Positions 1,451 through 48,900 of a stretch of 64,000 bases of DNA are shown here, in pieces. The notes below the pieces were generated by a model, which was given only the letters and a program-made list of their open reading frames with translations, did no database searches and had not been told where the DNA came from. Each line of letters begins with the position of its first letter. The first letter of the stretch is position 1. The stretch covers positions 220,286,001-220,350,000 of the forward strand of contig CM126204.1 in the NCBI GenBank assembly GCA_052327205.1. Direction: 5' to 3'. This DNA comes from Somniosus microcephalus. Lineage: Eukaryota. The position numbers and the translations under genes were made by a program.

Positions 1451-1650
1451 TGTTGTGTCGGTACCTTTCTACCTAGACACAATTTAGGACTCAGAACTCA
1501 GAGATTCAAACATGAAGTGCTTTATTGGAAGGAAAGGAAGTTCTGGCAAGTTCCGAACAAAGAGAGCTAAAACTTAACAGAGAACACCCAACCATTTATC
1601 TCCTATGACAGTGCCACCACAGGTGGGAGGAGAACACACAATACATAACA
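1451..1650 (-). repeat. 3' LTR of element A
   Basis: Direct repeat of 9639-9838; adjacent polypurine tract on the minus strand. Confidence 0.95.
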
Positions 1651-1745
1651 TTTCCTCCCCTCTTAAATGGAAGGTCCACATTATTCCTCAACAGGTAAGT
1701 TACTTTCAATGCACTCAACGAACCAAGGGTAGAGGTAGACTGCCA

Positions 1746-2010
1746 TGTTATGTTCATTAATAAATATACATTCTTATTCTGAACACAGCTAGCTTTTGCT
1801 AGACCTTTTATTGAGCACATGTGGACTAGGTACAGTATCTGTAGAGGCTTCCATCTTGACTGCTGCCTTGTGGGTAGCCTAGTGCCTCATGGGTAATGTA
1901 GTCTTACAGCTAGGTAGTGTAGTCTTATACATACAGCTATATACAGCTCTACACAGCTCTATGGCTCCACCTAATGTCCACTATAGAATGACATGTTATT
2001 GATCACTACA
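1746..2010 (-). repeat. 3' LTR of Gypsy element C
   Basis: TG...CA ends, minus-strand AATAAA, preceded on the minus strand by the PPT AAGAAAGGGGGA (2011-2022); no partner LTR in the window. Confidence 0.75.
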
Positions 2011-2157
2011 TCCCCCTTTCTTTGAGGTTTAACAAAATCAATATCAATCAACTTTCAAGAAAACAATAAAGATAATATCAGTAACACTTTTGTTAGTGCT
2101 CTATAAACATAAACATTTTCAAAACAGTCAACACATTTTCAAAGCTTTACATTGTAC

Positions 2158-3636
2158 TCAAATATTAAGTCTATCAGGCTTTTTTACTTCACGTGTGGAT
2201 CTTCTCAACACGGGTAAGTCTGATGTGTCTTCATGAGATTGTTCTGGCGGTGAATGACAAGATGCAGTTGCGGCATTGTCATCAATCTGTTCTTGTATAG
2301 ATCGAGGTCTCCTAGCGATCTTTGCTTGGAGAGGGTTTCAGTGTTTCCTTCACTCTTCATGCCATAACTCTCAATGTAGTCAATGCACTCTCGAAAAACC
2401 GCTGGCAGCTGGATCCCATCATACAGCATAGTCCTCTCAGCAGCCTCAGCTAATGGAACACCAAAGATTGGACTGAGGGAAGAAGGAGTATCCACCGGAA
2501 CTGCTTCCTGCTCTGCTGCAGGCTTCTTCTTTTTCTTTTTCTCTTTCCACTGCTTAACAACATCTGCTGCGGTTATATCTTTGGACTTTTTCTCCTTGTG
2601 TTTTTTCTCTTTGTGCTTTTCTTTGACCTTAAAGTCTTTTTCTTTATTCTTGGAGAAACTAGGCTTTTTGAAGACATGGATACCCTTTGGCCTTTCCATC
2701 CTTGATGGGCTCTCTGCTTCATCACCTGAGTCATCTGGTCTGCTTATGGCACAGTTTATACGGTAGACTCTCTTGACCAGTTCTAAGTCTTCACAAGCTT
2801 TGTCACCTAGTATCGAAATCAAGTCTTTCAGCCACAACAGAAAACATGAGATGATGCACTTTGTCTTTGACTGCCACTTTGAGTCTGCATACACCTAAGC
2901 TATCTATTTTCTGTCCATTATAGTCCTTCAGTAGTACTGACTTTTTCTCTATTTTGGGCTTTTCTTTCATATTGTTAATGTCACTCATACTGATTAAGTT
3001 TGCTTTTGCCCCAGTGTCCAGACTCAATGTAACTAATGCTCCATTTATCTGCAGTGGGATCATCCATTTGTCCACTTTTACTGCATTGACTTTATGTTCA
3101 GCATTGTCCATTTCTGAGGGCTGCACATTTTCTGTATCTTTTTTGATATCGTCACTTGACACCATTCCTACAAAAAATGTCTCACTTAAATCAGTGTCCT
3201 CAATCACATTAACTTGTTTCCCTTTCGTTGTTTTTACTTTTGAAAAGCATTGTTTGGCAAAGTGATTCTTTCCATTACATTTTGAGCACATTTTTCCAAA
3301 CGCTGGGCATTGTCTTAACTGGTGGTTGTAACCACAGTGTTTACAATTAAAAATTTCATCCTCCGATTGCTTTTCATTTCTGTTCTGCCCACGTTTCTTC
3401 CCCTTGTAGGACACAGCACCGACAGCAGCATTATCACTCATTACATTCGCATCATTATTGATTTCACTGAAAGTCTTCGCGTGCTTTTGAGCTAGCTCGC
3501 TGGCTTGGCATATTTTCACCGCATTTTCCAAATTTAGTTCGGTTTCTCTCAACAGACGTTCCCTGATGTTTTTATCATGAATACCAAACACAATCTGGTC
3601 ATGAATCATGGATGCTTTGAGCTCAGAGAAATTATG
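2158..3636 (-). pseudogene. Element C internal ORF: partial gag, Zn knuckle, protease, captured RALBP1 fragment, integrase C-terminal tail (frameshifted)
   Basis: MIHDQIVFGI gag; CSKCNGKNHFAKQC knuckle; LDTGA protease; SILGDKACEDLELVKRV protease end after a +1 frameshift near 2817; ends LRRSTREVKKPDRLNI-stop before the PPT. Confidence 0.8.
2346..2735 (-). pseudogene. RALBP1: Transduced RALBP1/RLIP76 fragment (Lys-rich region plus start of RhoGAP domain)
   Basis: SGDEAESPS...KGIHVFKKPSFSK...KSKDITAADVVKQWKEKKKKKKP...PIFGVPL...YDGIQLPAVFRECIDYIESYGMK matches vertebrate RALBP1 as recalled. Confidence 0.9.
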
Positions 3637-6204
3637 TGGAAGCGGATACTGCACCGTGTGAAGCACCGGATTAACAGTGATCTTGAAATCACCACGGATG
3701 CGAACCTTCCCCGGTTCCCCCGGCTTGTTGCTCGATGAACGCTTCATGACTGGGACAATGGGCGTGGCCCACTCACTCCAGTCTACCTTAGACAGTACTC
3801 CTGAACGTTCTAGCCCTTCCAGCTCAGCTTCCACAGCAGGTCGTATTGCATAAGGTACCGGTCTGGCTTTAAAAAATTTCGGGTTTGCATGTTCTTCAAT
3901 CTTGATGTTTGCCGTAATTCCTCTCAGTGTTCCCAGTCCTTGTTGGAACACCTCTTTAGCATCGTCCAATATTCTGGACAATCGTTTAGGTTTGACATCT
4001 TTTGTACCGGAATCTACCGTTAGTGCTTTTAAGGAATGCCAGTCCATATTTATTTTCCTAATCCACTCCCGTCCCAGTAGTGGTGGACCTCCCTCAGGTA
4101 GCACATATAAGTCCATTCCTCGGCTTTCTTTGCCCTTGTGGACCACCTTTACCTCTATCTTCCCGATGGGGTATACTCTTTGCCCCGTGTATGTTTTCAA
4201 TACAATCTCCGTATCCCGTAGGGGAATATGTGGGAATAACCTTTTGTAATCTTTCTTATTCATGACCGTCAATGCCGATCCAGTGTCCAATTCCATCTTC
4301 ACTTGGACTCCTGCTATCTGAAGTGTGACCCAAATTGTTTGGAGGTCTGCTTCCTTACCAACATTGTGTACTCTTAGACTACCCAGTTCATTACTGCTGG
4401 CGTCTGAATCTGACTTCTGTTCATTCGAACTGTTCTCTGTCACCTTGTGTACCTTTTTGTACTTTTCCTGCGGTGACTTTTTGTTGCTGGTCTTCTTTCC
4501 TGACCGGCATACTTTAGCTATGTGACCAAGCCTGCCACATTTTCTGCATTCCTGATTTTTGAACCAGCACTGGTTCTGATCGTGTGTTGTCTTTCCACAA
4601 CGATAACATTTTACTGTACTCAAGACCATTTGATTGGTACAGAGTTCCGGTGACCGTAGCTGCATTTCCGCAGTGCCTCTTGCTGCGGCTTCTTGCGATG
4701 CTGCAATAGTGACAGCTTTGTCAAGCGTAAGATCATTCTCTTCAAGCAGTCGCTTTTGTGTTCCTTCTTTTAACAATCCACACACAAATTTATCTCTCAG
4801 CGCATCTGCTAGCCCTGTCCCAAACTGACAGTACTTCATTGGCTTACGTAGTTCAATTAAAAATTCAGCGGTGCTTTCGTCTTTCAACTGCGTTCTTTTG
4901 TAAAATTTAAATCGTTCCGCTATCATCAGCGGCGTGGGGTTTAAATGATTTTTCAGGACAGTAACAATATTCGCGAAGGTCTGATCCGCCAGTTTAATTG
5001 GTGATAGAAGGTGCTTCAATAGCCCGTATGTCTTCGCCCCATTGAGCTTAATAAGGTTAATGCTTTCTCATCATCTGGTACCTTATTTGCTTTACAATAA
5101 ACTTCCATGCGTTCTACATATGTGGTCCAATCTTCGACATCACTATCAAAGGTATTAATGCTCCCATGTTTAGGCATCCTTGCAAGTTTTTAAATTTTTT
5201 TTTTTTAAATGGCGGCTTCCCGCGCTTGTCTTCTTCCCCCGCCTACTAAAATGGCGGCTTCCCGCGCTTGGCGGTCTTTCCCGCGCTCGTCTTCTTCCCC
5301 CGCCGACTACAATGGTGGATTCCCTCGTTTGACTTCTTCCCCCGCTGGCTGCAATGGCGATTGCCTTGCTGCTGCCGTTCTCACCTCCCCAGCGGTTCTC
5401 ACTCCCCGACGCTGCTTTGCCTTGCAGCCCCGCTTGCAGCCCGGTCCTTTACACCGGCTGTGTTTGATTTCTCCACGGCTCTCGTGCCTTAAGCTTCTCA
5501 ACTCCCCGACGCTGTTTTGCCTCGCAGCCCCGCTCGCAGCCCGCTACTGTACACCGGCTGCGTTTGAGTTCTCCGTGGCTCTCGAGCCTTAAGCTGCCCC
5601 AGTCGCTGCGCCTCTCGGCCTCGATTGCAGCCCGGGCCTTTCTACCGGCCGTGGTCGAGCTCTCCGCCCTTATTCCTCCGTTTTCCCTCCCCTACTCCAC
5701 AGTCAACGCGGCCGACTTTCTGCTCGTGTCGCTGATCAGCTTACCCACCACCGTGGTAGAAGGGATGAACACTGCCTGTCGCTGATGGAGGGCTTCGTGG
5801 TCAGAATTCTTTTTCTTTGTAACCCGGGTTCTCGATGCCTCCTGTGCGATGGTGCTCAGCAGGATGATGAGGGCGGATGCCTCTTCTCGACGCCCGTTTT
5901 GAGGACGAAGCTGCCTTGGATGTAAATTTGACGCAGGGTAAGATCGGACTCGTCGCCACTGTTGAGTCTGTATGTCCCAGTTAGGTTTAGGATCAATCAC
6001 TGGACACAGACAACAAGAATAACTTTTAACAGGTCTTTACTATTCGAAGGTCAGGGCTGAACTGCCCAGCAAATCCTTGCACAACACTTATATACCGGTG
6101 TGGTCACCACCGGTATTACAGTATTACAGTATACAGCAGCCAAGAGAAAGTAGTACACCTCTTAAGGTAGTTCTCTTAAGGTGGAACAGGTTACATACAC
6201 CACA
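3637..6204 (-). mobile_element. Gypsy element B (5' LTR, PBS, gag, protease, RT start), 3' part deleted; related to element D
   Basis: LTR 5960-6204; PBS TGGCGACGAG at 5949-5958; ATG at 5177 (MPKHGSI); CCHC knuckles; LDTGS protease; RT start WATPIVPV...GDFKITVN; gag closely resembles the ORF at 30139-32172. Confidence 0.88.
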
Positions 6205-6328
6205 GAATTGTTGTTTAAAAATCCGCCAATTGTAGTCGACATTTCCCTCGAAATTCAAATGCTCTGGTGGCTTCAAATTCTCCATGTCGCTTTTCACAAT
6301 TTTCAGCAGACATGGGGAACATGTTTTG
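6205..6328 (-). mobile_element. 5' remnant of element C (leader and gag N-terminus), interrupted by element B
   Basis: Minus strand reads MENLKPPEHLNFEGNVDYNWRIFKQQF, a typical Gypsy gag start, ending exactly at the B LTR. Confidence 0.7.
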
Positions 6329-6643
6329 GCACGGTGGCATAGTGGTTAGCACTGTTGCCTCACAGCGCCAGGGACCCGGGTTCGAATCCGGCCTCGGGTG
6401 ACTGTCTGTGTGGAGTTTGCACATTCTCCCCGTGTTTGCGTGGGTTTCCTTCGGGTGCTCCGGTTTCCTCCCACAGTCCAAAGATGTGCGGGTTAGGTTG
6501 ATTGGCTATGATAAATTGACCCTTAGTGTTAGGGGGATTAAATACGTGTGGCTACGGGGATAGGGTGGGATATGTGTTGGTGCAGGCTCGATGGGCTGAA
6601 ATGGCCTCTATCTACACTGTGGGGTTTCTGTGATTCTGTGATT
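6329..6643 (+). mobile_element. HE1-like V-SINE
   Basis: tRNA head, V-domain TGGAGTTTGCACATTCTCCCCGTG...TCCGGTTTCCTCCCACAGTCCAAAG, (TTCTGTGA)n CR1-type tail; very similar copy at 11401-11726. Confidence 0.9.
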
Positions 6644-8301
6644 CCCATCGAGACCTGGCCACCAGAAGTAGCTTTTTGCCATTTCCTTCATCCGAACCAT
6701 CCCACTGTGGCCTGTATGAAGTTGTTGCAGTATAGGTTCCCTCAGAGGTGGCGGAATGATGACACGGCATCCCCAAAGAAGACAACCTGCCTGGACGGAG
6801 AGCTCATTTCTTTTTGAAACGTAAGGTTTCAAACTAGGAGAATCTCCTATCGCTCTCCCTCGAATGACATCGTCCATTACCTCAGACAGGACTGGATCGT
6901 TGCGGGTGTACCTTCGCACCTGAACTGCAGTGACAGGTGCTCCCTCCACTTGTCTAAAGTGGAAGATGTCGATCTGACGAGGCTCTGGGGGAGTAACAGG
7001 CAAGGGTAGCCTCGAGAGACCGTCTGCGTTGCCGTGCAAGTCTAATTTGCGATATTTGAAGTCGTATGTGTGTCCTGACAACAGTAAAGCCCACCTTTGC
7101 ATCCTGCTTGCAGCGAGAGACGGAATTCCGGTGTGGGGCCCGAAGATTGAAGTCAATGGACGGTGGTCCGTCAGGAGTGTGAACCTTCTCTCAAACAGGT
7201 ACTAATGAAATTTTCGAATTCCAAAAACGATTCACAAGGCCTCGCGCTCGATCTGCGCATAGTTACTCTCGGCCTTGTTCAAGGTGCGTGATGCGAAGGC
7301 GATAGGTTTCTCTTCACCCGAAGGCATGATGTGGGATATGACTGCACCCACACCATATGGTGATGCATCACATGCTCGCTGCACTGGTAGCTTTGGGTCG
7401 AAGTGTGTCAGGACCTCCGAATTCAGCAATGCTTTCTTTGCTTGGGCGAAAGCTTCGTTGCACAGTTCAGTCCATTTCCATGTTTTGCCTTGACATAGCA
7501 ACTGATGTAATGGCTTCAGCAATGTTGCTAAGTCTGGAATAAACTTCCCATAGTAGTTAAGTAGCCCCAGAAATGAACGTAACTGGCTCACATTCTGGGG
7601 TGCTGGGGCCTCCACGATCGCCTTGACCTTTGACGGCGCCTTATGCAGGCCAGTAGCGTCAATCACATGCCCCAGGTACTCAACTGAAGACTGAAAGAAT
7701 TCACATTTGTCTTTATGAACTCTGAGTCCGTACTCTTTCAGTCGTTGTAGTGTTGCATCCAAGTTCAGAAGATGATCCTCCTCATTTGTCCCAGTGACAA
7801 GGATGTCGTCCAGGTAGCACTGGACTCCTGGCAGTCCACTCAAAATCTGATCCATTGCCCTTTGGAATAGAGCAGGGGCCGACGCAATTCCAAACGGAAG
7901 GCGGCAGTACCTGTATAGCCCCTTGTGTGTCACAATTGTCAGCAGCTCCTTTGATTTGTCATCGACATGCATTTGTAGATAAGCCTGGAATAAGTCTATT
8001 TTGCTGAACTTTTGCCCTCCGGCCAGGCCCGTAAAAGATCATCAATGAGGGGAAGAGGGTACTGTTCCACAGACAGCACCGGGTTAATAGTCACTTTAAA
8101 ATCCCCACAGATTCGAACAGATCCATCCTTTTTCAGGACAGGAACAATGGGTGTGGCCCATTTGCTCACGCTCACAGGCTCCAGGACTCCATTCTCGACT
8201 AAGGCCTCCAAGTTAGCCTCAACTTTTGGCCTAATTGCATCGGGTACAGGTCGGGCTTTGTGAAACTTCGGCTTGCTGTCAGGTTTAATGTCCAGTCTCA
8301 C
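6644..8301 (-). pseudogene. Element A pol (RT, RNaseH, start of integrase), frameshifted and truncated
   Basis: RLPFGIASAP, YLDD, RNaseH DAS...NYAQIEREAL, integrase HH region LHTGHSG...YFWWPGLD; truncated at the SINE. Confidence 0.9.
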
Positions 8302-9560
8302 GCTGAACTTTTCATGCTCCCAAGTTCCCCATTGAAAAGTTCTGCATGTTTGTTTAACACTGCAGTCAGACCTGACTCCCCTTTTGACATCATGCAGACT
8401 GCAGGCCAGTCTAGCGTGATTTTCTCTAGCCTCGCACGTCCCAGTAGCGATGGGTAATTTCCCTTTACCACATATAGTGGCAGTTTTGCAGTCTGTCCGT
8501 TCAATTTAACTGTCACCTCAATGATGCCTCTCATGGCCACAGGTTTGCCAGTATACGTCTTTAGCACAATGTTTGTTGGCTGAAGGGTAAGATGCTTTAG
8601 CATTTTGTTGCAGACAGTGTCTGAAACAAGGGACACAGCCGCGCCTGTGTCCACCTCCATCCGCACTGATTTTCCCTCCACCAGTGGTGACACCCAGTAG
8701 CCATTTGAACCACCTGCAACCGTCAGTATGTGCACCTCTTCCTCCTCAGAGGTGTCGCTCCCCTCTGTTTTGCTTGTTCCATCATACTGCACTGAATGAA
8801 CACTCTTTTTCCTCTCTTGTCCAAATACAGACATTTTGCTTCCATGCTTCCCAGCTCTGTCTGTTCTTTTTGTACCTCTACAGGCGCGTTCAATGTGACC
8901 CTTTTTGCCACAATTTCGGCATTCCAGCTCCGTACACCAGCAGTCATTAGCGTGATGGCCCGTTTTCCCACAACGGTAACATGTGCCGTTCCGCGCACCT
9001 TTAGGCTCAGACGACACCTTGTGAACTCTCCCTGTTGAACTCAGCTGGTGAGCCTCCTTTTCCGCCTTCTCCATGGAGACACTAACTTCAATGGCCTTTT
9101 CAAGAGTAAGGTTGTCCTCAGTAAGAAGGTGCTTCTGTGTGGCTGCATTTTGCAGACCACACACCAGCCTGTCTCTAATGGTGTCATTCAGCACCTCCTT
9201 GAACTGGCAGTGTTCCGACAACCTTTTTAAAGCAGCAATAAACATCGTCACTGATTCCCCCTCCTCTTGATTCTGTTTGTGAAATCTAAATCTCTCAGCA
9301 ATAACCAAAGTTTTTGGTGAAAAATGTGCTCCAAGAATTTCCACTAGTTGCTTATATGTTTTAGTTCCTGGCTTATCTGGCTGCACGAGGCTGCAAAGTA
9401 AATTGAAAGTCTTCGGCCCGATTACACTCAAAAAGGTAGGCACGACCTTTTCATTTGCCACCGCATTCGCCAATACAAAATAGTCAAAACGTTCCGTATA
9501 TGCGCTCCATTGCTCCACATTTTCATCAAAATCACCGATGTTTCCTAATATAGTAGCCAT
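8298..9560 (-). pseudogene. Element A gag-protease
   Basis: ATG at 9560; IAERFRF...IRDRLVCGL gag; two CCHC knuckles; VDTGA protease. Confidence 0.9.
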
Positions 9561-9638
9561 CTCACGGTTCAAATTAAATTTTCTGTTTACTCACTGCACC
9601 CGTAATGTACGCAGATTCATCCGCTCCTCATTGCCACT

Positions 9639-9838
9639 TGTTGTGTCGGAACCTTTCTACCAAGACACAATTTAGGACTCAGAACTCAGAGATTCAAACA
9701 TGAAGTGCTTTATTGGAAGGAAAGGAAGTTCTGGCAAGTTCCGAACAAAGAGAGCTAAAACTTAACAGAGAACACCCAACCATTTATCTCCTGTGACAGC
9801 GCCACCACAGGTGGGAGGAGAACACACAATACATAACA
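9639..9838 (-). repeat. 5' LTR of element A
   Basis: Direct repeat of 1451-1650, adjacent to the PBS. Confidence 0.95.
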
Positions 9839-24804: not shown

Positions 24805-25516
24805 CCAAGTTGAGAAGTGAACATGTTCTGTACTCTGTTAAGTCTGTGAATTATTTAGTTAATTAAGACACAGACTAATGAGTAACAATAAAAACAGGTC
24901 TTTACTGGTTGGAGGTAGGGACTATACGTAGGTCTTTACTTCATGCCCACAGGCGGGAACTGAGGGGAGATCAGTACCCACAGTACTATTTATACCCCTA
25001 TGGCCAGGAGTGGTACTGCGTATCACTACGCCCTACAAGTAGTGCAGTCCTGTCCATAGGTTCAAAGTAGCACACATATTACATACACAACATTCCTCCC
25101 TTCCTAGCTTTACAGTCATCTCCCCATTTAACATAACGTAATAACATATATACATATATAACTTCAGGTTTACATAACTGTGGTAAACCACGTTCACTAT
25201 CGTATCACTGTTAGTAGTTAGCACTGTTCACCACTGTTCGTTATAACTGTATCACTGACCACTATTGTATCACGGTACGAGGTCGCCTCTTGCCACACTG
25301 CTATACCTGGGATGACCACTGCCGACTCCGCCTTGGCTCCACCCACCAGGCCAGGTATAAAGGTGAGCGACTGGCTGGTATTCCTCCTGCTTGGATCGGA
25401 TCACCCACGAGAGTGGGCTCTGTTATTTAGTCAATAAAAACCTTTAGTCACCTTCGTAACTCTTCGCCTTTTATTGGAGGAATTGATAGGTATATCAATT
25501 TTATTGACTAAATTTA

Positions 25517-28500
25517 ATGATGTCCGACAACGAGTCACAACCGGCGGAGGAGCCACCAGCGCAGCTCCCAGGAGCACAGCCACACCAGCCAGCTTGGCTG
25601 CGAGCCCTCAGACCGCCGTACCTGGACCTGAACCCACGAGCAGCAAACTCAGCCGCAGACTTTAAACACTGGCTGGTCTGCTTCGAATCATACCTGAGAG
25701 AATCCAGCGTCCCTCAGGCATCCAAACTAAGTGTCCTGCAGGCACAACTGAGCCCGAGAGTATACACTCTCATCGAGGACATGACTACCTACGAGACCGC
25801 CATCAACCTGCTGAAACAGAAGTACCGGACCCCGGTAAACTACATGTACGCTAGGCACCTCCTAAGATCACGGCCGCAACAGCCAGGAGAATCAGTAGCC
25901 GAATTCTCACAGGCGCTATATGCACTCGCCAGGAACTGTGAGTTTAAATCGGTGTCGGCAGCCGAAAATACTGAAGATAATATCCGCGACGCATTCCTGA
26001 AAGGCCTACGGTCCGAGTACTCACGGCAAAGACTGCTGGAAGCTAAAGACCTCAGCATGGAAAAAGCTGAAGTCCTCGCTATCTCCCTGGAAGTGGCCCA
26101 CCAAGATCAGGAAGCATTCACCAGGTACTGCTCGCGACCCTGGGACTCGGGCCCGACCCCTACCACAGCACCCTTCCCAGCGCCGCCCCCGGGACCTACC
26201 TCTGCGTCGGCGTCCCGGACCCGACCGGCCCCGCCACCCCCGGCACCGGCCCCGACATCGGGCATCCGCGATCGGGCCGCCGGCTGTTTTTTTTGTGGCC
26301 AGGAGAAGCACCCGAGGTCGCGCTGCCCAGCCAAGAACTCCATATGTAAAACCTGCCTGAAGAAAGGCCACTTCTCCAAGGCCTGCAGGAGCGGATCCTC
26401 AGAGGCCAGCAGTGCCGCATGCGAACTATGGGGGCGGCCATCTTCGTTTAGGGCAACTGAGGCCAGCATCCCCACACATGAGTCATGGGGGCGGCCATCT
26501 TTGTTTAGGGCACCTGAGGCCAGCATCCCCACACATGAGTCATGGGGGCGGCCATCTTTGTTTAGGGCAACTGAGGCCAGCATCCCCACACATGAGTCAT
26601 GGGGGCGGCCATCTTTGATTAAGGCAACCGACCCCAATAGTGCCTCATGGGGCCCTACCTCGTGGGAGACGCCATTTTACTCACCACGCCCGACCGCCTC
26701 GCCCGCAGATGACAACGACTCGCTCAGCTACACACTAGCTTCCGTCACCCTGGACCAAGCCCGCCCGCACCATCTGTCCAAGTCAATGATGGACATCAAA
26801 GTGAACGGCCACGCCACGACCTGCCTGTTCGACAGCGGAAGCACGGAGAGCTTCATCCACCCAGACACGGTGAGCCACTACTCCCTCTCTGTCCTACCAA
26901 CGCGCAGCCGAATCTCGATGGCATCGAGGTCCCACGCCACGGACATCAGCGGCTACTGTGTCGTGACCCTGTCGGTTAAGGGCACGGAGTATAAAAACTT
27001 TAAACTCCTCGTCCTCCCCCATCTCTGCGCTGCCGTCCTACTAGGGCTGGACTTCCAATCCCACCTCCAAAGCGTAACCCTAGCATACGGTGGACCCCTC
27101 CCCCCACTCACAGTCAACAACCAGCAAACGTTAAACCGCCCACCGCGTAACACCTGCAGCCTCTCCACCCTCAAGGTCCCGCCACCCTCTCTGTTTGCTA
27201 ACCTTACCCCTGACTGCAAACCCGTCGCTACCAAAAGCAGGCGGTATAGCGCCGGGGACAGAGCCTTCATTAGCTCTGAGGTGCGGCGCCTCCTGAAAGA
27301 GGGCATTATCGAGGGGAGCAGCAGCCCCTGGCGTGCCCAGGTCGTAGTCGTAAAGACCGGCGATAAAAACCGCCTGGTCATCGACTACAGCCAGACCATA
27401 AACAGATATACCCAGCTGGACGCATACCCCCTCCCCCGCATATCTGACATGGTCAATCAGATTGCACAGTATAAAGTATTCTCGACCATCGACCTGAAGT
27501 CGGCCTACCACCAACTCCCTATCCACCCTGAGGACCGCCAGTATACCGCCTTCGAGGCGAATGGGCGCCTATACCACTTCCTTAGGGTCCCCTTCGGTGT
27601 CACTAATGGGGTCTCGGTCTTCCAAAGGGAGATGGACCAGATGGTTGACCAGAACGAACTGCAGGCTACATTCCCCTACCTAGATAACGTCACTATCTGC
27701 GGCCGCGACCGGCAGGAACATGACGCGAATCTGGAGAAATTCCTCCGTACGGCCCAACGGCTGAACCTCACCTACAATAAGGAGAAATGCGTGTTTAACA
27801 CCACGCGCCTTGCCATCCTCGGCTGCGTAGTGGAGAACGGAATCATCGGCCCCGACCCAGAAAGAATGCGCCCCCTCATGGAGCTACCCCTCCCCCACTG
27901 CCCTAAAGCACTTAGGAGAACCCTGGGGCTTTTCGCCTACTATGCCCAATGGGTACCCAATTACGCGGACAAAGCCAGACCCCTCCTGAAAGCCACTTCC
28001 TTCCCCCTCACGGAGGAGGCGTGCGCGGCCTTCTCCCTCATTAAGGGAGACATAGCCAAGGCCACGATGCACGCAGTGGACGAGTCCATCCCCTTTCAGG
28101 TGGAGAGCGACGCATCCGACTTCGCCTTAGCCGCCACCCTAAACCAGGAGGGGAGGCCAGTGGCCTTCTTCTCAAGGACCCTACAGGGCCCCGAGATCCG
28201 ACATTCGTCGGTCGAGAAAGAGGCCCAGGCGATCGTGGAGGCAGTACGGCGCTGGAGGCACTACCTGGCAGGCAAACGATTTACCCTCCTCACCGACCAG
28301 CGTTCGGTGGCTTTCATGTTTAATAACAAGCTGAAGGGCAAAATCAAGAATGACAAGATTTTGAGATGGAGAATCGAGCTCTCCACCTACGATTATGAGA
28401 TCTTGTACCGGCCAGGCAAGCTGAACGAATCCCCTGATGCCCTTTCACGAATGACATGCGCCAGCGCGCATATCGATAGGCTTCAGACCCTCCACGACCA

Positions 28501-29542
28501 GCTCTGCCACCCCGGAGTCACCAGACTCTACCATTTCATTAAGGCCCGCAACCTGACCTACTCCATCGAGGAGGTCAGGACCATGACCAGGAACTGCCAG
28601 ACCTGTGCGGAGTGCAAACCGCACTTCTATAGGCCGGACCGAGCAAGCCTGATCAAGGCCACCCGCCCCTTCGAGCGCCTGAGCATCGACTTTAAGGGGC
28701 CCCTCCCGTCCTCTGACCGTAATGTGTACTTCCTCAACATCGTTGATGAGTACTCCCGTTTCCACTTTGCCTTCCCCTGCCCCGACATGACCAGTAGCAC
28801 GGTCATTAAGTGCCTGAATGCCCTCTTCGCCTTGTTCGGGTTCCCGAACTATATACACAGCGACCGGGGCTCCTCCTTCATGAGCGAGGAACTCCGGCAA
28901 TTCCTCCTAGAGAGAGGTATTGCAGCAAGCAGGACCACCAGCTACAACCCCAGAGGTAACGGTCAGGTGGAAAGAGAGAACGCGACGGTATGGAAGGCCG
29001 TCCTCTTAGCCTTAAAGTCTAAGGGCCTCCCAACCTCCCGCTGGCAAGAAGTCCTCCCGACAGCGCTGCACTCCATCCGGTCATTACTTTGCACGGCCAC
29101 TAACACCACCCCCCATGAACGAATGTTCGTTTTCCCCAGGAAGTCGACTACGGGAACCACTCTACCAACCTGGCTGACCGCCCCGGGGCCGGTCTGGCTG
29201 CGGAAACACGTGAGGACCCATAAAACGGACCCCCTGGTCGAGAGGGTGAACCTCCTGCACGCCAACCCCCAGTACGCCTACGTGGCGTACCCAGACGGGC
29301 GGGAGGACACTGTCTCCCTACGAGACCTCGCACCCTCAGCCGATCCGGAAACACCGCCACCACCCCCCCCAACCTCAGTCCAGGTAGACGGCATGCCGGA
29401 ACCCCACGAGCCCTCGCCGACCACGCAAACACCAGCATCAACACCGGATAAGGCACCAGCACCGGATAAGGCAACACCACCGCTGCGGCGATCGGAGAGG
29501 CTTACGAAGCCTCCGGACAGACTGACCTACCAGAATTGGTAG
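25517..29542 (+). CDS. Element E gag-pol polyprotein, 1341 aa (Gag, 2 CCHC, PR, RT, RNaseH, IN)
   Basis: Uninterrupted ORF; CKTCLKKGHFSKAC, FDSGS, RVPFGVTNG, YLDN, SDAS...SVEKEA, HHCC, DEYSR...HSDRG...GNGQVER. Confidence 0.95.
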   Translation: MMSDNESQPAEEPPAQLPGAQPHQPAWLRALRPPYLDLNPRAANSAADFKHWLVCFESYLRESSVPQASKLSVLQAQLSPRVYTLIEDMTTYETAINLLKQKYRTPVNYMYARHLLRSRPQQPGESVAEFSQALYALARNCEFKSVSAAENTEDNIRDAFLKGLRSEYSRQRLLEAKDLSMEKAEVLAISLEVAHQDQEAFTRYCSRPWDSGPTPTTAPFPAPPPGPTSASASRTRPAPPPPAPAPTSGIRDRAAGCFFCGQEKHPRSRCPAKNSICKTCLKKGHFSKACRSGSSEASSAACELWGRPSSFRATEASIPTHESWGRPSLFRAPEASIPTHESWGRPSLFRATEASIPTHESWGRPSLIKATDPNSASWGPTSWETPFYSPRPTASPADDNDSLSYTLASVTLDQARPHHLSKSMMDIKVNGHATTCLFDSGSTESFIHPDTVSHYSLSVLPTRSRISMASRSHATDISGYCVVTLSVKGTEYKNFKLLVLPHLCAAVLLGLDFQSHLQSVTLAYGGPLPPLTVNNQQTLNRPPRNTCSLSTLKVPPPSLFANLTPDCKPVATKSRRYSAGDRAFISSEVRRLLKEGIIEGSSSPWRAQVVVVKTGDKNRLVIDYSQTINRYTQLDAYPLPRISDMVNQIAQYKVFSTIDLKSAYHQLPIHPEDRQYTAFEANGRLYHFLRVPFGVTNGVSVFQREMDQMVDQNELQATFPYLDNVTICGRDRQEHDANLEKFLRTAQRLNLTYNKEKCVFNTTRLAILGCVVENGIIGPDPERMRPLMELPLPHCPKALRRTLGLFAYYAQWVPNYADKARPLLKATSFPLTEEACAAFSLIKGDIAKATMHAVDESIPFQVESDASDFALAATLNQEGRPVAFFSRTLQGPEIRHSSVEKEAQAIVEAVRRWRHYLAGKRFTLLTDQRSVAFMFNNKLKGKIKNDKILRWRIELSTYDYEILYRPGKLNESPDALSRMTCASAHIDRLQTLHDQLCHPGVTRLYHFIKARNLTYSIEEVRTMTRNCQTCAECKPHFYRPDRASLIKATRPFERLSIDFKGPLPSSDRNVYFLNIVDEYSRFHFAFPCPDMTSSTVIKCLNALFALFGFPNYIHSDRGSSFMSEELRQFLLERGIAASRTTSYNPRGNGQVERENATVWKAVLLALKSKGLPTSRWQEVLPTALHSIRSLLCTATNTTPHERMFVFPRKSTTGTTLPTWLTAPGPVWLRKHVRTHKTDPLVERVNLLHANPQYAYVAYPDGREDTVSLRDLAPSADPETPPPPPPTSVQVDGMPEPHEPSPTTQTPASTPDKAPAPDKATPPLRRSERLTKPPDRLTYQNW
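26402..26655 (+). repeat. 57-bp coding tandem repeat (SWGRPSLFRATEASIPTHE) in the gag-protease linker
   Basis: About four near-identical 19-aa units. Confidence 0.9.
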
Positions 29543-30138
29543 TACACTTCACCCCGCCGGACTTAATTCTAAACAAGGGGTGAATGTGGTAAACCACGTT
29601 CACTATCGTATCACTGTTAGTAGTTAGCACTGTTCACCACTGTTCGTTATAACTGTATCACTGACCACTATTGTATCACGGTACGAGGTCGCCTCTTGCC
29701 ACACTGCTATACCTGGGATGACCACTGCCGACTCCGCCTTGGCTCCACCCACCAGGCCAGGTATAAAGGTGAGCGACTGGCTGGTATTCCTCCTGCTTGG
29801 ATCGGATCACCCACGAGAGTGGGCTCTGTTATTTAGTCAATAAAAACCTTTAGTCACCTTCGTAACTCTTCGCCTTTTATTGGAGGAATTGATAGGTATA
29901 TCAATAACAGAATAACATAGATACATAGATAACTTCATGTCAAAACAGATCACAGATTCAGTCTCTGTGGAAAACAGTTCACAGATTCAATCTCTGTGGT
30001 GTAGTCGGTTCACGTTGCTGGAGTGACTCATTCAATAGTCCTTCCATGGATTTAACAGTTTGAACTTCCGAACTGAATTGGCTCCGTTCGGAGGGACCAC
30101 GTGTGTGATCTGCTAGAGGTAATAATGGTTCAGATGGG

Positions 30139-32331
30139 TCATCTTCTGTTTCGACTTTTCCTTTTCTGCTTCTTGGAGACTCTCTGGGCTCCACTGTCAG
30201 CTGCCAGCTGCATGCGCAGTTCCTCCTTCTCTTCCTCCTTTTTCCGTAGTAGAGCCACCTTCTCCCGATGTTCCGTAGACTTTCGGTGCTCCTCCATGCT
30301 TTCTGTATGGTGGGAGTCGAAGTTACAAGTTGGGCAGGACAGGACATAGTAAAATTCGGTGTCGTCCTGATCTAAGCCAGTGAGAGGGTCTTCTATTTCC
30401 TCCATACCCAGCTGGGCGTTAGCCAGCTTTTGTTCCAAGTCCAGACATCTTTCCTGAAGAGACTTCTTCATGCGTACCTCTTCATCCAGCTTTTTCTGGG
30501 CTTTCAGCAAGTCGTTTACTAATGACCTCATTTGAGATTTTACTACTTCAACTTCTTTTGGAGATTGATTGATCGGACTATTCAATCCCTCTACCGGAGC
30601 AGCTGTTTCAGCGGTCTGTTGTTCTACGTTGACGTGAGTCAGCGTACTTTTGGCATCCAAGGGCTGCTCTGTTGCAGTCATCTCAGTCTGTGTTGCCACC
30701 TCAGCTCTTCCAATAACCTTTGAGAGCTCCGAACCCCTTTCGTTTGAATATTGAAGTTCGTGTTCAAGTTTTTCCCATTTCAGAGTCCTGTCCTTCAGCA
30801 TATGCAGGAGTTGGCTGACCGTTAACTCCTCTGACATCAGATGTTTTGTGTGCTCCTGCTCCATTTTCTCCATCAGCTGCTTCTGTTGTCTTTCCAGATT
30901 CTCCAACTCTATATCAAAGAACTCTTTCGTTGCATTCAACTCTTGCTCAAAACGGCGAAGCATTTGTTCTAATTGCTGTTGTAGTTTGAAATGGAGTTGA
31001 GTTCGAGCCCGGTGTCCCTCAGAAATGGGCACATCAGTAGACTTGCCAGACTCAGAATCCACAGTTAAACTATGTTGTTGTTGCTCAGTGGAATTCTGTG
31101 CTGAAACTTTGTCTTTTGCACCTGAGTTGGGCTTACCATCATCCGTTCCAGAGTCTGGGCCGACTATCTTCACCGAGTTCTCACTCGTTATTGTTTGTAG
31201 GAAATGCCAGTCCATATTCATTTTCCTAATCCACTCCCGTCCTAGTAGTGGAGGACCTCCTTCAGATATCACATATAAGTCCATTATTTGACTGTCTTCG
31301 CCCTTGTGGACCACTGCAACCTCTATTTTCCCGATGGGGTACACTCTTTGCCCTGTGTATGTTTTCAATATAATCCCCGTATCCTGTAGGGGAATATGTT
31401 GGAATAACTTTCCGTAATCTTTCTTATTTATGACCGTCAATGCCGATCCAGTGTCCAATTCCAGTTTTACTTGGACTCCTTCTATCTGAAGAGTGACCCA
31501 AATTATCTGGAGGTCTGCACCCTTACCAGCGTTGAGTACTCTTAAGCTAGCCAGTTCATTACTGCTAGCGTCTGAATCGGACTCCTGTTCGGTCACCTTG
31601 TGTACCTTTGCGTATTTTCCTTGCGGTGACTTCTTGTTGCTGGTCTTCTTCCCTGACCTGCATACTCTAGCTATATGTCCAAGCCTACCACAAGTTCTAC
31701 ATTCTTGGTTTTTAAACCAACACTGGTTCTGATCATGCGTTGTCTTTCCACAACGATAACATTTGCCAGAACTCACACCCAATTTGTGTGCACTGAGCTC
31801 CGGTGACCGTAGCTGCATTACTGCCGTGCCTCTCGCTGCGGCTTCGTGTGCTGCTGCCATAGTGACCGCCTTCTCAAGCGTCAGCTCATTCTCCTCGAGC
31901 AGTCGCTTTTGTGTATCCTGTTTAAATAAACCACACACAAATTTGTCTCGTAGTGCATCTCTCAGTCCCGTTCCAAACTGGCAATATTTCGCTAATTTAC
32001 GCAATTCCAGCAAATATTCAGCATTGCTTTCATGCTGTAGCTGCCTTCTGTCATAAAATTTAAATCGTTCCACTAGCATCAGCGGCGTGGGGTTTAGATG
32101 ATCTTTCAGGACAGTAACAATCTCATCGAACGTCTTATCCGCCGGTTCATCTGGTGATAACAGGTGTTTCAATTGCCCGTATGTCTTCGCACCCTATAAA
32201 TTTAATAATGTTAGAGCTTTATCTTGGTCACAAATTTTATTGGCCTTACAATAATTTTTTACTCTTTCAACATATATGGCCCAATCTTCGAGGTCACTAT
32301 CAAAGGTGCTAATATTCCCGTGTTTAGGCAT
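30139..32331 (-). CDS. Element D gag-protease fused to host-derived STK10, OPTN and DNAJC21 fragments (one premature TAG at 32194-32196)
   Basis: ATG at 32331 (MPKHGNIS) is in frame with the 677-aa ORF; knuckles, LDTGS protease, then coiled coils and a C2H2 finger; a second frame ends PQRLNL-stop at 29979, typical of a Gypsy pol terminus. Confidence 0.85.
30142..30405 (-). pseudogene. DNAJC21: Transduced DNAJC21-like C2H2 zinc finger and basic segment
   Basis: [11 protein letters not shown]-x12-H-x5-HREKVALL...[10 protein letters not shown] versus recalled DNAJC21 LYDDLYCPAC...HEKSKKHREMVALL...QKLSKKQKKK. Confidence 0.7.
30409..30840 (-). pseudogene. OPTN: Transduced optineurin-like coiled-coil segment
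   Basis: EELTVSQLL...AEVATQTE...[37 protein letters not shown] versus recalled [12 protein letters not shown]...SEIETQTE...[37 protein letters not shown]. Confidence 0.8.
30845..31020 (-). pseudogene. STK10: Transduced STK10/LOK (SLK family) coiled-coil segment
   Basis: HRARTQL...[42 protein letters not shown] versus recalled STK10 [42 protein letters not shown]. Confidence 0.85.
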
Positions 32332-33999
32332 TGTAGATTTGCAATTTCTCAGATTTTATTTTCTTTACTTGCTATCAAAAATGGCGGCTTCCCGCTCTTG
32401 CCGTTGTCCTCCGCCCACAAAATGGCGGTTTTCCCGCGCTTGGCGGTCTTCACCCGTCCCCCGATGCCGTCTCCCTTCAGCCCCCGAGTGCGGCCCTTAT
32501 CTTCGCCGCGATCGCCCGAGTGCGGCCCTTATCAGCGGATGTGATCGATGGCCCGGCTGCGCCTCGCACTTGAAAGCGGCCCGGCCCTTATCAGTGCTTG
32601 CGATCGATGGCCCGGCTGCGCCCCTCACTTCAAAGCGGCCCGGCCCTTATCTGCCGATCGCTATCGCCCTGTACCTCTCTCTTCCCCAGTCCTGTCTTCT
32701 ACTCCGGTTCACAAGCTGATGGAGGCTTCAGGGTCCTAATGCCTGTCGCTTCCAGTGGGTTGGTGAGTGGTGAGGTTTGAAACCTCTCTTCAACCGCCGT
32801 AGGGTAAGAACCTGACTCGTCGCCAGTGTTAAGTCTGTGAATTATTTAGTTAATTAAGACACAGACTAATGAGTAACAATAAAAACAGGTCTTTACTGGT
32901 TGGAGGTAGGGACTATACGTAGGTCTTTACTTCATGCCCACAGGCGGGAACTGAGGGGAGATCAGTACCCACAGTACTATTTATACCCCTATGGCCAGGA
33001 GTGGTACTGCGTATCACTACACCCTACAAGTAGTGCAGTCCTGTCCATAGGTTCAAAGTAGCACACATATTACATACACAACATACTCGAGCTGCATTTC
33101 TGTGTGTCCTATTTTTACTCATCATCAAAATAGTGTGCACATGAATGAGTGTGTACATTAAGTTCACTGATCAGAAGTTATACCTTCAGATGCTCTCTGC
33201 CAAGCCACCTAAAAGACACTGCAACAGTATATTGTAGCAAAGGGCAAGTTACAGAGACATGGTTCATAGAGCTTCTCTCTTCATTAGGAAACAGGTATAT
33301 TGTGGGCAGATATTGCAAAGCTCTGTTGCCAGTGTGGAGCCTTGCTTGTGCGAGTGCAGGCTGCACTGTTGTAGTTCTATCTACACTAATGTCCAGCAAG
33401 GCACTAAGCCAGCAGAGGAACCTTGCAATTTCTGCCCTATTGCATTAGATCTGAGGTTATGGTATATCAGAGGGTGCTGTGAGCAGCAAATCTGGTCCTG
33501 AAATTGGCAGGAGGCGAGTTGATCTCCAGACCCACACTTATGTGTCAAGGATACCCCATTGATACAAAGTTAGGGTGTAGGGCTTCTGAGTGCCAGTCTG
33601 AGGACCACTCGCTGCTTCCACCTCGTCATGACCCTGTCTGAAATCCCAGGGACGAGGTTATCAACACATTGGGGACAGGTGCCCACACATGTAGCCATGC
33701 AAGAGGGGGCTCTGCTCGCTTCACTTATTGTGGAGCTCACATGCAGCCCAGTGTGCCACCCACACATGCTCTGAGCAGATGTAGGTGCCACTGGGCCAGT
33801 CGGAGGCATGTCTGGCGGGATTCCTCGAGTGGCCCAGGAGCAACGCTCGGACAATTTCGCAAACCGTTGCCAGGACATAAGGAAGGGCAGGCGGGCGGGG
33901 GAAACAGAATCAGCCTCTGCTGAATCTCCATCAGAATCCCAACCCCCATGAGGGAGCTGAATTTCTGGGCGAGGGACTCTTTCTGCTCCTGGTGTCACA

Positions 34000-44619: not shown

Positions 44620-45909
44620 ATTATTCAGCCCTTAGGAGAAATGTGAGTTAAGATGAGCTAGAAAGGACAGAATTCTAGGCATCTGGTGCTTGACAATCCT
44701 TAATCGATGTCTTTGAAGAATAGTGACCAGAATAGATAAAGGGAATGCAGTGACACTATGTGGTTCATGTGAATTATCAAAAAGCATTGATGGGGTCTCC
44801 GAGGAGACTTATGAAAGGATAATTGCGCATGGAATTAATGGCAGTGTGATCACATGGATAGAGAGATGGTTGGGGGTCAGAAAGCAAATGCTAGGGGTAA
44901 TAAAATGTTTCTCAAGCAGTGAAGATGTAATGAGTACACAGGCAAAATACTGTGGATGCTGGAAATCTGAAATATAAACATAAAATGCTCAAAATACTCA
45001 GCAGGTCAAACAGCATCTGTTCCACAGGAATCTGGGCTGGGGACTTATTTATGATATAAAATATAAATGATCCAGACTTGGAAATTGAGAGAATAATATT
45101 TGCTAATGAAGCTAAATTGGAGGGCGTGTGGCAAATTGTGAGGATTGCAAAAGACTGCAGGAGGACATAGGCAGTCTCGTAAGATGGGCAGGTAGATGGA
45201 GGATGCAGTTCAATGCAGAGAAATTTTTGGCAGATTATTCCACATTCTCACTGCCCTCTGTGTAAAGAAATATTTTTAAATTTCCCCTTATTCCTGTTTG
45301 TGATCATCTTAAATTAGTGGCCTTAACATCTCCCCAACCCATTTGGGAAATAAGAACAGGGATTGGAAATCCATCTTCGTGGTTAGAGTTGAAACACTGT
45401 AGAGGAGCAGAGGTTTGTGGGTCACTAAAGGAAGCAGTCCAAGTAGATAAGAATATAAAAAAGGCAAACAGAATCTTTGACTATGTATCTACAAGCAGAG
45501 AATACAAAAGCAAGGAAGTAATATTGAGTTCAGCCAATTCCTGAGTCAAGACCTCAGTGCAAGAGCTAAATTAGGCTGCAATTGGAGTTTTCTGCACAGT
45601 TTTGGACACCAATGATATGAAGGGTATAAATGTAATGGACAAGGTGTAGCATAGATTCACCAGGATGTCACCAGGGATGAAAAGAAAAGGAGCTTGAAAA
45701 GGTAGGTTTTTTTCTAACAGGGGCTGAGAAGGTCGAGGTCCTCCAGATTATAAAAGGTTCTGAGCAGGTAAATAGTGATCGATGGTTTCCATTGGTTGGG
45801 GAGATGTTAAGGACACCAATTTAAGATGATCACAAACAGGAATAAGGGGAAATTTAAAACATTTCTTTACACAGAGGGCAGAGAGAATGTGGAATAATCT
45901 GCCAAAAAT
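44620..45909 (+). mobile_element. Degenerate CR1 LINE RT and 3' remnant with internal inverted duplication
   Basis: TRIDKGNAV, AHGINGSVITWIERWL, KKANRIF...EYKSKEVIL, FFTQRAERMWNNLP. Confidence 0.8.
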
Positions 45910-48900
45910 GAATGCAGGAGAGAAGGATTAGACTAGGTGCAATATTAAAGAGAATGGGGAGTGAGCAGGAGAGGAGGATTAGACAGGGTGTGAGCAAAAG
46001 AGAATGGGGAGTGAGCAGGAGAGGAGGTTTAGACTGGGTGCGATATTAAAGAGAATGGGGAGTGAGCAAGAGAGGAGGATTAGACTGGGTGTGATATTAA
46101 AGAGAATGGGGAGTGAGCAGGAGAGGAGCATTAGACTGGGTGTGATATTAAAGAGAATGGGGAGTGAGCAGGAGAGAAGGATTAGACTGGGTGTGATATT
46201 AAAGAGAATGGGGAGTGAGCCGGAGAGGCGGATTAGACTGGGTGTGATATTAAAGAGAATGGGGAGTGAGCAGGAGAGGGTGATTAGACTGGGTGTGATA
46301 TTAAAGAGAATGGGGAGTGAGCAGGAGAGGAGGGTTAGACTGGGTGTGATATTAAAGAGAGTGGGGAGTGAGCATGAGAGGAGGATTAGACTGGGTGTGA
46401 TATTAAAGAGAATGGGGAGTGAGCAGGAGAGAAGGATTAGACTGGGTGTGATATTAAAGAGAATGGGGAGTGAGCAGCAGAGGAGGATTAGAATGGGTGT
46501 GATATTAAAGAGAATGTGGAGTGAGCAGGAGAGGAGGATTAGACTGGGTGTGATATTAAATAGAATGGGGAGTGCGCAGGAGAGGAGGGTTAGACTGGGT
46601 GTGATATTAATGAGAATGGGGTGTGAGCAGGAGAGGAGGATTAGACTGGGTGTGATATTAAAGAGAATGGGGAGTGCGCAGGAGAGGAGGATTAGACTGG
46701 GTGTGATATTAAAGAGAGTGGGGAGTGAGCAGGAGAGGAGGATTAGACTGGGTGTGATATTAATGAGAATGGGGTGTGAGCAGGAGAGGAGGATTAGACT
46801 GGGTGTGATATTATTGAGAATGGGGTGTGAGCATGAGAGGAGGATTAGACTGGGTGTGATATTATTGAGAATGGGGAGTGAGCAGGAGAGGAGGATTAGA
46901 CTGGGTGTGATATTAAAGAGAATGGGAAGTGAGCAGGAGAGGATGATTAGACTGGGTGTGATATTATTGAGAATGGGGAGTGAGCAGGAGAGAAGGATTA
47001 GACTGGGTGTGATATTATTGAGAATGGGGTGTGAGCGGGAGAGGAGGATTAGACTGGGTGTGATATTAAAGATAATGGGGAGTGAGCAGGAGAGAAGGAT
47101 TAGACTGGGTGTGATATTAAAGATATTGGGGATAGTGCAGGAGTGGAGGATTAGACTGGGTGTCATATTAAACAGAATGGGGAGTGAGCAGGAGAGGAGG
47201 ATTAGACTGGGTGTGATATTAAAGAGAATGTGGAGTGAGCAGGAGAGGAGGATTAGACTGGGTGTGATATTAAAGAGAGTGGGGAGTGAGCAGGAGGAGG
47301 AGGATTAGACTGGGTGTGATATTAAAGAGAGTGGGGAGTGAGCAGGAGAGGAGGATTAGACTGGGTGTGATATTAACGAGAATGGGGAGTGAGCAGGAGA
47401 GGAGGATTAGACTGGGTGTGATATTAATGAGAATGGGGAGTGAGCAGGAGAGGAGGATTAGACTGGGTGTGATATTAATGAGAATGGGGAGTGAGCAGGA
47501 GAGGAGGATTAAACTGGGTGTGATATTAATGAGAATGGGGAGTGAGCAGGAGAGTAGGATTAGACTGGGTGTGATATTAAACAGAATGGGGAGTGAGCAG
47601 GAGAGGAGGATTAGACTGGGTGTGATATTAAAGGGAGTGGGGAGTGAGCAGGAGTGGAGGATTAGACTGGGTGTGATATTAATAAGAATGGGGAGTGCGC
47701 AGGAGAGGAGAATTAGAATGGGTGTGATATTAATGAGAATGGGGAGTGAGCAGGAGAGGAGGATTAGATTGGGTGTGATATTAATGAGAATGGGGAGTGA
47801 GCAGGAGAGGAGGATTAGACTGGGTGTGATATTAATGAGAATGGGGAGTGAGCAGGAGAGGAGGATTAGACTGGGTGTGATATTAAAGGGAATGAGGAGT
47901 GAGAAGGAGAGAAGGATTAGACTGGGTGTGATATTAAAGAGAATGAGGAGTGAGCAGGAGAGGAGGATTAGACTGGATGTGATATTAAAGGGAATGAGGA
48001 GTGAGAAGGAGAGAAGGATTAGACTGGGTGTGATATTAAAGAGAATGAGGAGTGAGCAGGAGAGGAGGATTAGACTCGGTGTGATATTCAAGAGAATGAG
48101 GAGTGAGCAGGAGAGGAGGATTAGACTGGGTGTGATATTAAAGAGAATGTGGAGTGAGCAGGAGAGGAGGGTTAGACTGGGTGTGATATTAATGAGAATG
48201 GGGTGTGAGCAGGAGAGGAGGATTAGACTGGGTGTGATATTAAAGAGAATGGGGAGTGAGCAGGAGAGGAGGGTTAGACTGGCTGTGATATTAATGAGAA
48301 TGGGGTGTGAGCAGGAGAGGAGGATTAGACTGGGTGTGAAATTATTGAGAATGGGGAGTGAGCAGGAGAGGAGGATTAGACTGGGTGTGATATTAAAGAG
48401 AATGGGGAGAGAGCAGGAGAGGAGGATTAGACTGGGTGTGATATTAAAGAGAATCGGGAGTGAGCAGGAGAGAAGGATTAGACTGGGTGTGATATTAAAG
48501 AGAATGGGGAGTGAGCAGGAGAGGAGGATTAGACTCGGTGTGATATTAAAAAAAATGGGGTGGGAGCAGGAGAGGAGGATTAGACTGGGTGTGATATTAA
48601 AGAGAATGGGGAGTGAGCAGGAGAGGAGGATTAGACTGGGTGTGATATTAAAGAGAATGGGGAGTGAGCAGGAGAGGAGGATTAGACTGAGTGCAATATT
48701 AAAGAGAATGGGGAGTGAGCACGAGAGAAGGATTAGACTGGGTGTGATATTAAAGAGAGTGGGGAGTGAGCAGGAGAGGAGGATTAGACTGGGTGTGATA
48801 TTAAAGAGAATGGGGAGTGAGCAGGAGAGGAGGATTAGATTGGGTGTGATATTAAAGAGAATGGAGAATGAGCAGGAGAGGAGGATTAGACTGGGTGCGA

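Follow-up and report, generated by a model that had tools for sequence, protein, structure and literature searches.

Element E, an intact Ty3/gypsy retrotransposon located in the window (the whole 64,000-nt stretch of Somniosus microcephalus DNA analysed here), probably primes its own reverse transcription without a tRNA, through a fold-back of its transcript resembling that of Tf1. We assign this reading, which is drawn by analogy, a probability of about 0.75. [quoted passage not shown]

Element E and its insertion site

Element E extends from 25179 to 29903 and was recognized as a Ty3/gypsy element by its TG...CA LTRs, target-site duplication (TSD), polypurine tract (PPT), and the order protease, reverse transcriptase (RT), RNase H, and integrase (Table 1). 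The two LTRs are 100% identical and the element is intact, indicating that it was inserted or copied recently. Its insertion point is located within the 3' LTR, about 85 bp in, of an element on the minus strand whose LTRs lie near 24836–25092 and 32827–33083.

The first ATG of the ORF is found at 25517, 20 nt past the LTR, in agreement with the spacing given in the first-pass annotation of this DNA, and is followed by an in-frame ATG at 25520. The encoded protein contains two CCHC fingers, and its enzymatic domains are arranged as in gypsy elements. The catalytic acidic residues, whose positions were assigned via motifs, are presumably D864, E901, D926, and D973 in RNase H, and D1057, D1115, and E1151 in integrase. 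The acidic residues of RNase H are invariant across 79 aligned proteins.

Table 1. Coordinates of element E and its sequence features in the window.
Feature	Position	Strand	Remark
Left TSD, 5 bp	25174..25178		repeated at 29904–29908
5' LTR, 319 bp, TG...CA	25179..25497	+	same sequence as 3' LTR
TATAAA, possible upstream promoter	25356..25361	+	position varies among relatives
Putative self-primer (LTR arm)	25425..25439	+	3' end is the inferred cleavage point
AATAAA poly(A) signal, 3' end of primer arm	25433..25438	+	predicted to be paired in 5' LTR RNA
Loop: rest of R, U5, and 1-nt spacer	25440..25498	+	inferred strong-stop template, from pairing geometry
Small hairpin at LTR end (U5-IR-like)	25481..25500	+	inverted repeat; not conserved across families
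Putative primer-binding site, TTT not TGG	25499..25513	+	starts 2 nt past the LTR end
Single intact gag-PR-RT-RNase H-IN ORF	25517..29542	+	1340 aa counted from 25520
In-frame tandem repeat, 57 bp x 3.5	26428..26628	+	19-aa unit; interval from zinc fingers to protease
Polypurine tract adjoining 3' LTR	29571..29584	+	comparable tract in six relatives
3' LTR	29585..29903	+	AATAAA here predicted to be mostly unpaired
Primer-arm copy in 3' LTR	29831..29845	+	no local PBS partner; offset 4406
Right TSD	29904..29908		copy of 25174–25178

Pairing between the PBS and the LTR

A TGG site was looked for after the 5' LTR of element E, which ends at 25497, and none was found, as the first-pass annotation had reported; the site starts with TTT. 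The perfect complementarity described there also proved exact: the PBS at 25499–25513 is the reverse complement of 25425–25439 over 15 bp, with AATAAA included. Likewise, the distance of 65–70 nt claimed between the TATA box and the partner arm was borne out, with TATAAA at 25356 preceding the arm by 69 nt.

A scan of positions 1–45800 for perfect inverted repeats of at least 11 bp with a loop of up to 150 nt detected seven, among which the 15-bp pairing of element E is the longest. When interior positions were taken as mock PBSs and compared with the LTR of element E, 0 of 2960 reached 15 bp (maximum 9), and this length was likewise reached by 0 of 5000 shuffled LTRs. The RNA fold of the pairing region has a z score of −3.04, with 1 of 200 shuffles being equally stable. 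Two TGG-type neighbours in the window served as controls; they carry TGG 1–2 nt past the 5' LTR, and their PBSs pair with their own LTRs over only 4 and 6 bp.

Conservation and covariation of the pairing among relatives

Ten related loci were obtained from a scan of bacterial genome contigs (GTDB MAGs), of which six were usable. L008–L010, which are remote integrase fragments of 24–37% identity, and L004, which has lost its own 5' end, were dropped before counting. L001–L007 are apparently animal retrotransposons that entered contigs labelled bacterial through host contamination. In L001, L002, and L005, the contig is one element long, in circular permutation, and has a single LTR, apparently arising from collapsed assembly or from one-LTR circles; in L007, the 5' boundary of the LTR was placed approximately. 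L003, a decayed L006-family copy (93% LTR identity) whose 3' LTR retains the pairing base, was set aside, and the count comprises six families: E, L001, L002, L005, L006, and L007. As a separate observation, positions 1700–5900 of L004 hold a Cigr-like pol and a 3' LTR (with ATTAAA) fused to the 5' part of a different element with a TGG site.

The PBS of every relative pairs perfectly with its own LTR, over 14 bp in L001, 13 bp in L002, 10 bp in L003, 15 bp in L005, and 14 bp in both L006 and L007, and only 0–3 of 5000 shuffled LTRs matched the observed stem length in these six. The register is identical in all seven elements, the PBS lying 2 nt past the LTR CA and beginning with TTT, and the loop varies from 23 to 58 nt. 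None of the seven testable elements has a TGG site after the LTR. In the literature, a self-primer has been recognized by PBS–LTR complementarity of at least 10 bp starting 0–5 bp after the LTR (PMC6317226), and such complementarity is present in 7/7. The variant self-priming proposed in the first-pass annotation, which had named loss of the pairing among relatives as the observation that would speak against it, gains support here, since all six testable relatives keep the pairing with compensatory changes.

The six families share 41–69% identity in Pol, and their LTRs are unalignable except for 30 nt between L006 and L007. Stem pairs were counted with the LTR end as anchor, as the loops came out misaligned under MAFFT. 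At stem positions 1–13, a range picked after the stems had been seen, all 78 of the 78 pairs are Watson–Crick, with no G–U; L006 and L007 have an 11-nt core in common. Positions 1–3 are invariant, and the remaining 10 of the 13 covary with two or three pair types. The true assignment of PBSs to LTRs ranks best of 720 permutations (next 76, mean 51). A PBS pairs with the LTR of another family over 4–8 bp, or over 10–12 bp within the related L003/L006/L007 group; among families it varies at 12 of 15 positions, matching its own LTR every time. The lack of G–U pairs would fit templated copying of the primer into the PBS.

In each family, the LTR arm terminates with a poly(A) hexamer, AATAAA in four, ATTAAA in one, and AGTAAA in one, all of which are common variants of the poly(A) signal. 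[quoted passage not shown] Both arms are rich in A/T, and chance complementarity was considered, but this explanation is refuted by the mock-PBS count in element E, by the shuffle counts in element E and the six relatives, and by the covariation across six families, and we regard it as practically impossible.

In a tree of element E, its homologues, and one neighbour as outgroup, to which L007 contributed 48 aa only, the stem-bearing elements span 122–127 of 127 tips; the backbone support is poor (0.13 without L005 and L007).

Proposed priming mechanism and transcription start

For element E, we propose the start of the transcript, its cleavage, and priming as follows. The transcript would most likely begin with a YA located where the stem starts or close by (A25425 or A25429), so that the primer would be 5'-terminal. 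It would then fold back, and 11–15 nt of LTR sequence with the poly(A) hexamer at their end would pair with the PBS. On the model of Tf1, RT/RNase H of the element itself would cut just past ...AAUAAA(A), at 25439/25440, and minus-strand DNA over 25498–25440 could be primed from the released 3'-OH, yielding a strong-stop DNA of 59 nt. This DNA would then be transferred to the short R tail of the 3' LTR, from the hexamer to the poly(A) site. Self-priming is favoured because the register at the LTR end is fixed despite the variable loop, and priming requires such a register. In addition, the recently copied element E needs a primer, yet it has no TGG, which was counted for self-priming.

At both candidate starts, A25425 (15-nt primer) and A25429 (11-nt primer), the A belongs to an Inr-like T[CT]A[GT]T; an Inr-like consensus, TCAKTY, has been reported (PMC3601003). 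Inside the arm, T[CT]A[GT]T occurs in three of the six families only. A YA is found within 0–3 nt of the stem start in 6/6 families, giving primers of 11–15 nt, with a joint background of 0.024 calculated post hoc. No TATA[AT]A lies about 30 nt before the partner arm in any of the seven elements. The YA at the stem start together with this absence suggests that the primer may be 5'-terminal, as in Tf1. The TATA box used as a reference in the first-pass annotation is indeed present at 25356, but it may not define the start. Overall, a short 5'-terminal primer is somewhat favoured over a longer one produced from an upstream start.

Transcription commonly starts about 30 nt after a TATA box, a rule that would place the start of element E near 25386 and give a primer of about 54 nt whose 5' extension is unpaired or folded. 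This form of self-priming, which is contained in the probability given above, would be a departure from Tf1. It draws on the TATAAA at 25356 in element E and a TATATA 64 nt before the end of the arm in L005, on the stem still forming in the longer RNA, and on the perfect stem running 1–3 nt upstream of the first YA in 5/6 families. Conversely, TATA[AT]A is absent from five of the seven LTRs and differently spaced in the other two, and an unmodified long primer would offer no obvious stop to plus-strand synthesis, so that a mismatched flap would be expected at the second strand transfer if the retroviral mechanism applies. We consider the extended primer unlikely on balance.

Predicted masking of the poly(A) signal and alternative primers

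The predicted probability that AAUAAA is unpaired is 0.00–0.28 in the 5' LTR versus 0.40–0.94 in three 3' LTR contexts. According to these folds, the duplex probably hides the AAUAAA of the 5' LTR while the 3' copy stays open, limiting premature polyadenylation; the masking suggested in the first-pass annotation is thus in line with folding prediction. The duplex might serve for this masking alone, with priming left to something else, as the location of the hexamer within the stem in 6/6 families and its unequal predicted accessibility between the two LTRs would also be expected in that case. However, the absence of TGG in 7/7 elements, the fixed +2 register, and the lack of G–U pairs would then be unexplained, and the PBS arm is transcribed 23–58 nt past the hexamer, which would be late for masking alone. 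A role confined to masking thus appears improbable.

Priming by another RNA was weighed as well. It had been stated that the 15-bp stem can form only at the 5' LTR, which holds for a local hairpin, but the arm copy in the 3' LTR (29831–29845) could pair over a long range. This copy, in cis or on a second packaged RNA, might prime on the PBS after trimming of the tail, being identical, predicted to be mostly unpaired, and expected close to the 3' end of the transcript. Yet the local 5' hairpin is strongly favoured in the fold prediction (mean pair probability of 0.90–0.98 over the minimal region in 7/7 elements), trimming would remove the R overlap needed in strand transfer, and no precedent was found in the portions of the self-priming literature covered; we rate such priming slightly below the masking-only reading. 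A host tRNA half or other small RNA acting as the primer, with the LTR match being secondary, is very improbable. Half-tRNA priming is known in some copia lineages (PMC6317226), but the PBS of the present elements differs among families at 12/15 positions and tracks the family's own LTR each time, and Rfam gave 0 matches at E values up to 5 across 25100–25700, a weak test for 15 nt. ARAGORN returned 0 hits. Self-priming from the 5' LTR arm remains the preferred reading.

Further RNA structure around the primer

The 'pretzel' of Tf1 needs two further duplexes beside the PBS (10.1101/2022.12.06.519325). Its central duplex is present in 7/7 elements, and its leader–loop duplex is no better than in shuffles in 7/7 (82–455 of 500 shuffles did equally well). 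Among the seven elements, loop folding surpasses that of shuffles only in L001 (10/300) and L002 (8/300). A helix right after the primer, obtained in 4/7 constrained folds, was rejected as a signal, as 30–99 of 300 shuffles did likewise. The second hairpin described at the LTR boundary was recovered with its 8-bp arms, 7 bp of which are used in the fold, and its 2-nt overlap with the PBS means that it would compete with the first two PBS bases in element E. It did not stand as a lineage feature, being found only in E and L002 (2/6 families).

Phylogenetic affiliation of element E

Element E is Cigr-1-like, as judged by RT similarity and motifs rather than by the tree. Its RT is identical to the Cigr1 RT provided in supplementary file 4 of PMC8220671 at about 118 of 228 positions (about 52%, counted by hand), and the two have WRAQ, DYSQT, and PFGVTNG in common. 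In the supplements of PMC8220671, PFGVTNG turned up once, in the Cigr1 RT, while the RTs of Tf1, Tf2, and fungal chromoviruses inspected by eye in part of file 4 contain neither WRAQ nor DYSQT; a by-eye comparison of the RT motifs of element E with Tf1, Tf2, Amn-ni, Maggy, and Cft1 gave no match. The three motifs are present in 117–118 of 121 collected proteins. Searches for motifs in the supplement text covered of PMC12471100, PMC6238403, PMC8556966, and PMC6317226 gave no result. Cigr-1 has been ranked as its own small clade (PMC6238403, PMC8556966).

Consistent with the first-pass annotation, no chromodomain was detected in element E, its C-terminal 146 aa included, or in 10 homologues that were scanned again, and PF00385 was found in 0/120 among the matches listed for element E. 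The missing chromodomain and the Cigr1-like RT motifs place element E outside the Tf1/sushi group. Among the matches listed, rays and sharks contribute the named proteins nearest to element E (76–83% over RT–RNase H), in keeping with a cartilaginous fish as host, and remoter named ones belong to a sea anemone, to two nematodes, and to a damselfly. The best PDB match is Ty3 (E 1e-60), which is uninformative on the clade, and the Gag of element E matched generic retrotransposon Gag clusters only in the ESM Atlas. Plasmid and phage collections contained 11 and 1 remote matches, respectively, with at most 36% identity and none belonging to the lineage of element E. A 5.3-kb 'plasmid' of a Wolbachia record, NZ_CP087956.1, encodes a gypsy RT, RNase H, and integrase (95% of the query, 32% identity) and is probably a host retroelement circle.

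The RT of element E carries YLDN at residues 720–723 (about 27677–27688) and not YxDD. Across the 121 proteins, 93 have YxDN and 25 have YxDD, with three unscored, and the two forms are interspersed in the displayed part of the tree. Since element E looks recently active, an RT with Asn at this position appears to be functional; the Ty1 RT reportedly tolerates this change in vitro. A search of full-text literature for YLDN gave nothing relevant. The Repbase names 'Selfy' and 'Smaug' likewise led to nothing relevant in the literature.

Comparison with known self-primed and tRNA-primed elements

Tf1, Tf2, Tj1, Tosmo, sushi-ichi, and Tcn1 constitute the self-priming chromoviruses of the Tf1/sushi group. 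Like them, element E has no tRNA site, and its PBS just past the 5' LTR complements its own LTR. The Tf1 primer consists of the first 11 bases, which RNase H cuts between bases 11 and 12 (PMC7175516); the primer of element E would be similar in length and may be 5'-terminal too. In contrast to the Tf1/sushi group, element E has neither a chromodomain nor the leader duplex of the pretzel, and its RT motifs differ from those of the Tf1, Tf2, and fungal chromovirus sequences inspected. Furthermore, the arm, 13–15 bp long in the families counted, always ends in a poly(A) hexamer, a feature not described for Tf1/sushi in the parts of the literature covered. By analogy, element E would work like Tf1 without belonging to the Tf1/sushi group.

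Cigr-1 itself is a short element with a single ORF, like element E, and its original description is reportedly that of Simmen and Bird in 2000. The RT motif of Cigr1 is YLDD, versus YLDN in element E. The clade includes the Cigr-1 of Ciona intestinalis and is also found in molluscs and annelids (PMC6238403, PMC8556966).

In the plant Ty1/copia superfamily, self-priming of the TAR lineage (Houba, Osr-1) was predicted from PBS–LTR complementarity (PMC6317226). TAR thus offers the same complementarity outside Tf1/sushi as element E does, although the superfamily and hosts differ. In view of TAR, self-priming probably had more than one origin, and element E is less surprising for that.

Saci-2/lennie and Mag-type elements are tRNA-primed animal Ty3/gypsy elements, and element E is likewise non-chromovirus and animal; its Gag is weakly similar to those of the TGG-primed neighbours in the window (E values of 2e-11 and 1.5e-8). 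Saci-2/lennie was ruled out as the clade of element E, which has a 5-bp TSD and no TGG, whereas in lennie the PBS is of the tRNA-Leu type and most TSDs are 4 bp long (PMC4558846), and Saci2-like elements have a tRNA PBS and 4-bp TSDs (PMC12471100). Skipper of Dictyostelium and the fungal GalEa resemble element E in having no TGG site. Skipper carries a polypyrimidine tract to which, in the account given, its LTR offers no complement (PMC5006619), and the GalEa hairpin sits inside the internal region (PMC6934838).

Novelty and implications

Self-priming has been described in Tf1/sushi and Tcn1, and copia TAR is predicted to use it (PMC6317226); within gypsy it is treated, in the literature covered, as a hallmark of the Tf1/sushi chromoviruses. 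Searches of full-text literature, mostly in open journals and partly in excerpt, retrieved no report of self-priming in animal gypsy elements outside the chromoviruses, Cigr-like ones included, and none placing a poly(A) signal in the primer. A prior description in the original Cigr-1 paper, Butler 2001, Levin's papers, Repbase, or GyDB is conceivable, with a substantial minority chance. We propose, tentatively and with the odds somewhat against the full combination, that a widespread and undescribed Cigr-1-like clade of animal gypsy elements, mostly with YxDN RTs, evolved tRNA-free priming independently of Tf1/sushi, in which the poly(A) signal forms the 3' end of the primer and, with no pretzel, one co-evolving duplex makes the primer, silences the 5' poly(A) site, and fixes the end of U5.

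Whether self-priming is ancestral or was repeatedly reinvented is a question raised previously (PMC3601003), and a second lineage, non-chromovirus and of animals, bears on it. Self-primed elements would score as having no PBS in tRNA-based annotation, and they would lie beyond the reach of 3' tRNA fragments, whose control operates through tRNA-type PBSs. The overlap of the primer with the poly(A) signal would compactly explain the use of this signal at the 3' end only. As an intact young copy with exact predicted coordinates, element E makes the model directly testable by mapping of RNA ends.

Other observations in the window

The U3 of both LTRs of element E (25196–25275 and 29602–29681) contains several short direct repeats of an ACTGT motif, seen by eye, which are possibly enhancer sites. 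The element hosting the insertion is a TGG-primed gypsy element on the minus strand (24836–33083) with 99.6% identical LTRs, and element E lies close to its PPT. A fragment at 4018–5278 is related to this host (80%). A second TGG-type gypsy element occupies 1451–9838, also on the minus strand, with 98% identical LTRs and nested insertions. From about 45900 to 64000, the window consists of a 51-bp satellite in about 350 copies; its plus strand is strongly skewed towards G (about 0.79) and contains long open frames.
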